44,292 nucleotides of DNA from a virus (IMGVR_UViG_2660238147_000001), one strand, 5' to 3'; numbered from the stretch's first letter, positions 14,034-15,540 are shown. Notes: generated from the letters alone by a model not told the origin. A program made the numbers and translations.

Positions 14034-14143
14034 TATTCATTCTTCCAGATTCCTTCCGGCAGAGCCTTATACTGGAATATACCTGGCTCAGGATATTGTT
14101 GAAAATATTATATGTTTGTCAAAAATAAAAGTTCTGTTAAGTA

Positions 14144-14497
14144 TTGATTGAGTGTTTGTTATACGGTCTAATGGTTTTTTCAGCATTAAATATTTATCAT
14201 TCATATGGTGTGGGTAGAGTGAATATTGATGAGGCGTCGGGGTGTTTCATCCTTAGGCAGCGTATTGATATAGTCAATGCAGCACGAGCAAAGGCCTTCA
14301 GCCGTTTGACAGTTTTGTTTTGTACTCCTGATCGTCTTTCGGGAAGAGACGTTATTATTCTGAATAGTGATGCTATACAGAGGGTTAGCGATGAGTTCAT
14401 GGTTGCTAATTCAGAATTATTTGCTCTTGTTCAGGAGTACAACAGAATAGCCAGGACCTGTGGTATGGATGAACTTCGGATTACTCATCTGGGGTAG
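14144..14497 (+). CDS. Hypothetical ORF in AT-rich cargo island (coding status uncertain)
   Basis: 117-aa six-frame ORF with a TTG start and no obvious Shine-Dalgarno; AT-rich; no family recognised. Confidence 0.3.
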   Translation: MIECLLYGLMVFSALNIYHSYGVGRVNIDEASGCFILRQRIDIVNAARAKAFSRLTVLFCTPDRLSGRDVIILNSDAIQRVSDEFMVANSELFALVQEYNRIARTCGMDELRITHLG

Positions 14498-14888
14498 ATA
14501 CATATCTGGATTATCACCTGTTACGGTAAAAAGTGATTGCTTACTGTTTTTGTGAATGGCATTGCAGCAGCCGGATAATGTCAGTGCTGGCTGACGGTGT
14601 GCTGGTGGCAGGTGTGGTGGTTGTTGCTTTTCCGTTGCTGAAAAAGAAAACGCCAGACTGTTAGCCGGGTATCAGTTAGCGGGAGAAATTTTTAAATACT
14701 TCACAATTCAGGCGGTTGACTGTTGTCTGGTTTGCGGGGAGTTTGTTAAAAGAAACTGGCATGGTGAATCCCCCTGTGCGGAGGGGCAATCAGCGAGTAG
14801 GTATATGGGATAATCGCGGATTCAGGTGCTGGTACTGAATTCACCGGGAGGCACCCGGCACCATGCAATGGCACATAGCGCCACTCTC

Positions 14889-14924
14889 CAGCCCCTCTCC
14901 GGAGGGGCTGTTTATATTGATTTT
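14889..14924 (+). terminator. Rho-independent terminator
   Basis: 9-bp stem CAGCCCCTC / GAGGGGCTG with TCCG loop, followed by TTTATATTGATTTT. Confidence 0.55.
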
Positions 14925-14944
14925 GTCAGATGTGAGTAAACTCC

Positions 14945-15280
14945 TTATGGACTTTGTTGTTTTAGTCCATAAGGACATATTTGCAGAGTGCAACGGTTAT
15001 TAAAGCATTCATTCAATACGTTATCTGTATTTGTAGGGCATTCCTGGCTGTTTTTGATTAAATTCCAGAATGTTTTATTGAATGGTACTACGTTGTAAAT
15101 GGTTACAGGTAGCACTTTGTTATTGAGCATGATGCCTGTGTGAGTCAGTGTAAATATACTTTCAGGAGGTAAGAAAGCATCCGATTGATACCAGATTATT
15201 AATTTTATTTTACTCCATATGACTGAAAAAGATATTCCGCATGATGGCTGGATAACTGTATCAATCACAATCCACTTCAT
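14945..15280 (-). CDS. Hypothetical Cys-rich protein in AT-rich cargo island
   Basis: 111-aa minus-strand ORF with AAGGA Shine-Dalgarno 5 nt upstream of the ATG; low GC; C-terminal cysteine cluster ([26 protein letters not shown]). Confidence 0.45.
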
Positions 15281-15540
15281 TTGGTTTCCTTGTTTATGCC
15301 TTGCTGGTGATGTCCTGAAAAGTATAAATGATATTTTTGAATGTAAACCATAGAGCAGAATTATTTTTCTGATGTTGTTTATTGTTTATTTAAATGCAGG
15401 GTGGTTTATATCTCGTCTTGTAGTTTATCCATGCATATCTGCTTGATAATCAGGTTTTTATTTAAGGTATAGTTTTGTGTTTTTTCTGTATTACATGTCA
15501 GGTATTTTAAAGAATTATTTTTCAGATAGTGGAAAGAACC

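Follow-up and report, generated by a model that had tools for sequence, protein, structure and literature searches.

In Stx phages the slot between the tRNA cluster and the lysis genes carries stx, which raises the question of what a related prophage holds in this slot when no toxin-like ORF can be recognized. We analyzed this for positions 14034-15540 of the viral sequence IMGVR_UViG_2660238147_000001, whose full stretch of 44,292 nucleotides is called the window in the following. An earlier note, written from the sequence alone, had described these positions as an AT-rich cargo island and had considered that the cargo could be a virulence or defence factor. Our analysis leaves us highly confident that the region carries the cargo (morons) of a lambdoid prophage, at the beginning of its late operon, that this prophage is located between potC and potB (the “potB island” type of CFT073), and that iraL is the main gene of the region.

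Composition of the region and the scaffold around it

With a GC content of 39.3% compared to a mean of 51.1% for the 44-kb window, the region is indeed AT-richer than its surroundings, as had been noticed before. No other 1.5-kb stretch of this DNA is as AT-rich; only 0.1% of all 1507-bp windows are equally low, and all of these overlap the same place. The composition within the region is uneven, with 32.8% GC in the spacer between the tRNAs and the first ORF, 41.6% in the orf region, 49.2% in the DUF3927 gene, 55.3% in STnc100, 34.5% in iraL and 29.6% in the region upstream of iraL. The middle part with the DUF3927 gene and STnc100 is not AT-rich. The low GC content is found mainly in iraL and the DNA that regulates it, which fits a foreign origin. 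H-NS-type silencing can only be inferred.

To the left of the region, DUF968/NinG-like and RusA genes are followed by the Q antiterminator (12819-13640), a promoter/terminator leader and three tRNAs, and to the right a DUF1737 ORF precedes the holin, lysozyme and spanin genes. The region itself consists of four separate modules, namely orf92, a DUF3927/TciB-like gene, STnc100 and iraL (Table 1). The leader behind Q (13641-13747) contains a strong intrinsic terminator at 13721-13740, which is consistent with a pR'/tR' arrangement. Two Rfam resemblances in this leader, Trp_leader with 25 bits vs. 41 and isrK with 18 bits vs. 50, were sub-threshold and were judged not significant. The first tRNA (13784-13859) is called tRNA-Met (CAT) by ARAGORN, and RefSeq as well as the 933W record give its homologue as tRNA-Ile (ileZ), i.e., with a lysidine-modified CAU anticodon. 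Elsewhere in the window we found ordinary features of Qin/Rac-type prophages, namely a DicF sRNA close to dicB (4505-4556, minus strand; 76.7 bits) and, together with hokD, the antitoxin RNA sok (10323-10494, plus strand; 106.7 bits).

Table 1. Features of the cargo region and its flanks (positions in the window).
Feature	Position	Strand	Remarks
tRNA cluster: ileZ-type tRNA (CAT anticodon), tRNA-Arg TCG, tRNA-Arg TCT	13784-14033	+	left anchor of the cargo slot; 92% identity to 933W
orf92, conserved small protein, predicted two-helix hairpin	14219-14497	+	
DUF3927 / TciB-like 43-aa protein, one hydrophobic helix	14533-14664	+	
STnc100 prophage sRNA (Rfam RF02076)	14730-14919	+	full-length match including intrinsic terminator 14889-14910
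Perfect 12-bp inverted repeat with 10-nt loop, overlaps iraL stop codon	14942-14975	-	
iraL CDS, 111 aa, RssB anti-adaptor of the IraM family	14945-15280	-	identical to CFT073 c1429 / WP_000871291.1
iraL 5' UTR, 33 nt, AAGGA Shine-Dalgarno; TSS 15313	15281-15313	-	exact match to published 5'-RACE
iraL promoter and upstream regulatory region, about 30% GC	15314-15540	-	
Two small ORFs, remnant of a nanS-p / YjhS-type esterase	15541-15887	+	right flank

A block alignment of the window with the phages 933W, JLK-2012, mEp460, 640R1 and PPwrbA served to compare the content of this slot. The anchors shared with 933W are the tRNAs (13744-14041, 92%), STnc100 (14701-14867, 71%), the N-terminus of the esterase (15540-15648, 84%) and the holin (93%), and the blocks of 933W (Q, pR', ileZ-argN-argO, stxA2B2, STnc100, nanS-p, S, R) have the same order as those of the window. 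As the similarity to 933W breaks off at 14041 and sets in again at 14701, the interval 14042-14700 corresponds to the position of stxA2B2 in 933W, whereas the window has orf92 and the DUF3927 gene there. No similarity to stxA2B2 of 933W (locus positions 1963-3203) was found in the window. The earlier description as a stx slot lacking a toxin-like ORF is thus in line with both the position and the absence of a toxin domain. Unlike 933W, the window has a second insertion behind STnc100, and its esterase is internally deleted. This insertion is the iraL module (about 14870-15540), which lies between STnc100 and the esterase start with iraL on the opposite strand.

The phages differ in what they have in common with the window: mEp460 shares 14034-14867, 640R1 shares 14701-15540, and JLK-2012 shares 14565-14875 and carries tciA-tciB as its own cargo. 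Since different phages share different subsets, the region is a mosaic of exchangeable modules and not one island. The cargo of the proposed cargo island can therefore be retained, but at least four modules that differ in their distribution take the place of the single island. The whole arrangement corresponds to the scaffold of Stx phages, with Q antiterminator, pR'/tR', three tRNAs, cargo, STnc100, nanS-p esterase and lysis genes. As far as their position on the late-operon strand tells, orf92 and the DUF3927 gene would be transcribed by Q-modified RNA polymerase on induction. For iraL, which is located on the opposite strand and has its own sigma-70-type promoter, the 5' RACE in CFT073 shows expression in the lysogen, independently of the phage late promoter.

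The anti-adaptor gene iraL

The minus-strand gene for a Cys-rich 111-aa protein with a Shine-Dalgarno sequence, which had already been recognized from the sequence, is iraL, the same gene as in E. coli CFT073. It encodes five Cys (4.5%), four of them within the last 31 residues, and the AAGGA motif is located about 7 nt ahead of the ATG. Positions 14034-15540 are 100% identical at the nucleotide level to CFT073 (NC_004431.1) and to many ExPEC genomes, and the RefSeq labels in those genomes are “anti-adapter protein IraM”, “DUF3927 family protein” and hypothetical/pseudogene fragment. A homology check of the protein led to the IraM family: it reaches 162 bits against NCBIfam NF007393 (IraM; cut-off 121), where residues 1-110 cover positions 1-113 of the 114 in the profile, and 62% of its residues agree with K-12 IraM in an alignment of 107 aa. 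An identity of 58.9% between IraL and IraM has been published based on ClustalW (PMC4045071). Residues 1-78 can be aligned to chain A of PDB 8TWD (IraM) with E = 9e-32, which suggests a PmrD-like beta-barrel domain in this part of the protein.

The prophage is inserted between potC and potB, and iraL has been placed on the potB genomic island of CFT073 (Hryckowian et al., mBio 2014, PMC4045071); a later paper gives its locus tag as c1429. The CFT073 locus resembles the window in the DNA across 14034-15540, in the potC/potB island and in the TSS sequence. A difference is IS200C (tnpA), which CFT073 has between Q and the tRNAs at window position ~13742-13748 and which is absent from the window, and therefore the prophage of the window comes from a CFT073-like relative and not from CFT073 itself. 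Among 5426 complete E. coli genomes, 1446 contain iraL together with the promoter module, nearly all at ≥95% identity, and the whole region 14034-15540 is present in 863. The original description speaks of a “genomic island” and not of a late-operon slot equivalent to that of stx, and the neighbouring STnc100, DUF3927 gene and orf92 are unmentioned there (PMC4045071).

[quoted passage not shown] The AT-rich promoter-like tract that had been proposed at 15300-15530 thus holds the mapped iraL promoter. From the sequence, a TATACT hexamer at 15321-15326 can be read as -10 element and TTTACA at 15342-15347 as a -35-like hexamer, separated by a short spacer of 15 nt. A generic sigma-70 scan returned no more sites than for shuffled sequences and missed the mapped promoter. 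Expression of iraL in the CFT073 lysogen is documented by 5' RACE, RpoS immunoblots and RNA-seq (PMC4045071, PMC12890032), and the assumption that horizontally acquired cargo is expressed in lysogens is hence borne out for the main gene, which has its own promoter.

With regard to regulation, iraL (c1429) was found to be up by 1.6 log2 at 37 °C in the later paper, and a fur mutant has been reported to contain more IraL (PMC7157518). In the iraL promoter, the closest match to a Fur box scores 11/19, a value reached by 96% of the shuffles, and we rejected such a box as the cause of the increased IraL in the fur mutant. Upstream of iraL, a 17-nt direct repeat, AGAATTATTTTTC(T/A)GAT, occurs at 15357-15373 and 15511-15527 (94% identical, 154 nt apart), which could be a binding site for a regulator or a chance event in AT-rich DNA. 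At the other end of the gene, the inverted repeat overlapping the stop codon forms a hairpin of -17.5 kcal/mol and probably represents the 3' end of the iraL transcript.

[quoted passage not shown] According to this mechanism, published for the identical CFT073 sequence, IraL of the window would occupy the N-terminal receiver domain of RssB, so that RssB would no longer hand RpoS to ClpXP and RpoS would consequently stay high in exponential growth. [quoted passage not shown] All five cluster I residues (I4, I6, W22, K26 and I42) are identical in the window protein, and in clusters II/III five of nine are identical and the other four show conservative changes (T13S, L75I, H63N, I64V). The retained cluster I together with the changes in clusters II/III would fit, and could simply rationalise, the binding of IraL to the N-terminal domain only.

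K-12 IraM (b1160; PDB 8TWD) has all five Cys in common with the protein of the window and agrees with it in the PmrD-like domain formed by the first 78 residues; IraL has four extra residues at the C-terminus. At the nucleotide level, only the coding sequence (14961-15283) is homologous to K-12 iraM. As the homology does not extend beyond the CDS, the two promoters are unrelated, in agreement with the differing regulation of the paralogues: Mg2+ starvation induces IraM, whereas IraL acts in log phase (PMC10844676, PMC4045071). In addition, iraL of the window adjoins STnc100, whereas K-12 iraM is located just outside e14 with no adjoining STnc100. In K-12 the gene lies just outside the e14 attachment remnant (icdC) beside ycgX, a DUF1398 gene (L004 3681-5108), and the prophage of the window also carries a DUF1398 gene (ydfO). 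There are hints that the iraM-ycgX segment of K-12 is itself a relic of a lambdoid prophage.

STnc100, the DUF3927 gene and the esterase remnant

Two of the modules, STnc100 and the DUF3927 gene, had been overlooked in the earlier note. The sRNA reaches 132.4 bits (gathering score 47) over model positions 1-206 of 206, and its terminator hairpin is followed by a T-run; a sigma-70 scan of the sequence yielded no convincing promoter for it. It is found in the same slot in 933W, JLK-2012, mEp460, 640R1 and PPwrbA. STnc100 is known as a multi-copy prophage sRNA; in EHEC EDL933, other copies were seen in RNA-seq data and on Northern blots (PMC5331693), and a preprint connects it to PasD (Zhu, Shabalina and Storz, bioRxiv 2026). 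In Stx2 phages it is located 75 nt downstream of stx2 (PMC12370729), i.e., in the same position downstream of the cargo as the copy in the window. PGAP/RefSeq annotates a partial “hypothetical protein” pseudogene at 14750-14875 (minus strand), which lies antisense and wholly inside STnc100, and a 70-aa ORF is annotated in 640R1; the pseudogene call is probably spurious. Phage vB_EcoS-640R1 has two copies of STnc100 (L002 3561-3754 and 4030-4218), which flank a small cargo segment upstream of the iraL homologue, and these two copies fit a role of STnc100 as recombination anchor.

The 43-aa protein upstream of STnc100 belongs to Pfam DUF3927 (PF13064; 95.6 bits, gathering threshold 25) and matches phrog_1470 with E = 7.8e-13. 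PHROGs labels this family [quoted passage not shown], which is an annotation label only, and a literature search on TciB / DUF3927 returned nothing relevant. Over residues 12-39 the protein does not differ from TciB of JLK-2012, but the N-terminus does, with a recombination junction near 14565 in the gene.

The right flank is a remnant of a 617-aa nanS-p / YjhS-type sialate O-acetylesterase, of which the ORFs 15541-15729 (62 aa, DUF1737) and 15726-15887 (53 aa) are the two ends. They match esterase residues 1-62 (95% identity) and 572-617 (87% identity), and positions 1-58 and 582-632 of 634 in phrog_143. Compared to phage JLK-2012, about 1.49 kb are deleted internally, with a short overlap at the junction (15745-15760). 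An intact gene of ~617-634 aa with DUF1737 N-terminus and esterase domain is hence absent at 15541-15887, where only the two ends are left.

orf92 and the alternative readings of the region

The stx position proper is occupied by the plus-strand ORF that had been described as weakly supported. The ORF does exist (14144-14497) and is better backed than described, with 230 bits against phrog_2873 and with relatives, but it probably starts later. The longest version begins at TTG 14144 (117 aa), and PHROG 2873 aligns from ATG 14171 (108 aa). The conserved core and the distant relatives begin at GTG 14219. Because the alignments of the distant relatives begin at query residue 26, the gene is likely 14219-14497 with a GTG start and 92 aa. 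AlphaFold predicts a two-helix hairpin for this version (pLDDT 88.1); the 117-aa start model was mediocre (pLDDT 69.6, residues 1-23 disordered) and was discarded.

A possible reading of orf92, which is less likely to be right than wrong, is that of a moron with a function of its own. The modeled hairpin might bind or inhibit a protein of the host or of a phage. In the same reading, recombination would be anchored by the tRNA block and by STnc100, so that lambdoid prophages could exchange their stx, tciAB, orf92 and iraL cassettes. In STEC prophages the gene would be under the control of an upstream AraC-type regulator. In these STEC-type prophages, a 55%-identical homologue is located 22 nt downstream of the gene for a 241-aa AraC/HTH_18 regulator (phrog_1450; L005 911-1261 and 164-889, respectively), followed by a diverged STnc100, and the whole arrangement of AraC-type gene, orf92 homologue and STnc100 was found in 80 complete genomes.

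A less probable explanation, which we consider unlikely, is that 14144-14497 is a chance ORF in a non-coding spacer and that only iraL and STnc100 are functional. Its ribosome-binding site is weak, and the start codon is TTG or GTG. Of 5426 complete E. coli genomes, 1186 (~22%) carry the DNA of orf92, and in 14 of 15 sampled RefSeq records of these 1186 genomes, the 14 covering the whole query, no feature is annotated under it. Among sequenced phages, mEp460 was the only carrier in a tblastn search, and the gene is unannotated there as well. The differences to the 55%-identical homologue are distributed over the codon positions as 36/33/54, and this excess at the third position is only modest. 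On the other hand, full-length homologues at 55% identity exist, and a full HMMER scan revealed relatives of 91-95 aa that keep the same length and the core (AFSRLTV..TPDR ... AN.EL..LV.EYN) down to ~21-40% identity. A chance ORF is also difficult to reconcile with the PHROG score, with the single indel relative to a 72%-identical DNA homologue, which is in frame, with a 40%-identical relative that likewise follows a Q antiterminator, and with the confident AlphaFold model.

A novel virulence toxin or anti-phage defence factor that replaces stx, as the earlier note had considered, is very improbable. The position is the stxA2B2 slot of 933W, the AT-rich composition is typical of acquired cargo, and orf92 and the DUF3927 gene are without known function, apart from the “TciB-like” label of the latter. 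However, none of the five ORFs matched a family of the PADLOC defence models at E ≤ 0.01, and neither a toxin nor a defence domain turned up when all ORFs were scanned with Pfam and NCBIfam. The 111-aa product of the main gene is the RssB anti-adaptor IraL. The 92-aa helical hairpin of orf92 has neither a signal peptide nor an enzyme-like fold, no Pfam family covers it, and structure searches returned generic hairpins only. Even less credible is that the whole segment is decayed phage DNA, i.e., ordinary phage gene remnants without current function: the adjacent deleted esterase, the DUF3927 N-terminus unlike that of TciB with its nearby junction and the PGAP pseudogene fragment could be taken in this sense, but iraL is intact and conserved, has a mapped TSS and a published phenotype (PMC4045071), STnc100 is full-length, and the fragment is the probably spurious antisense call inside it. 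An ordinary phage gene remnant is thus found in the flank at 15541-15887 and not in 14034-15540 itself.

Most of the content of this cargo segment is already known: for iraL, the gene and its mechanism have been described in the literature, and STnc100 and DUF3927 are entries of Rfam and Pfam, respectively. The sole underexplored element is orf92, a conserved helical hairpin in the stx position. It was reported in 2014, and taken up in later studies, that a prophage-borne iraL rewires the general stress response of the host and keeps RpoS high while uropathogenic E. coli is growing. Our analysis adds the context that iraL occupies a second cargo position in the scaffold that carries stx in Stx phages, flanked by STnc100 and a deleted nanS-p, and that the precise stx position is held by the conserved small gene orf92. 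The benefit of this is modest and concerns annotation as well as the understanding of cargo exchange in lambdoid prophages.
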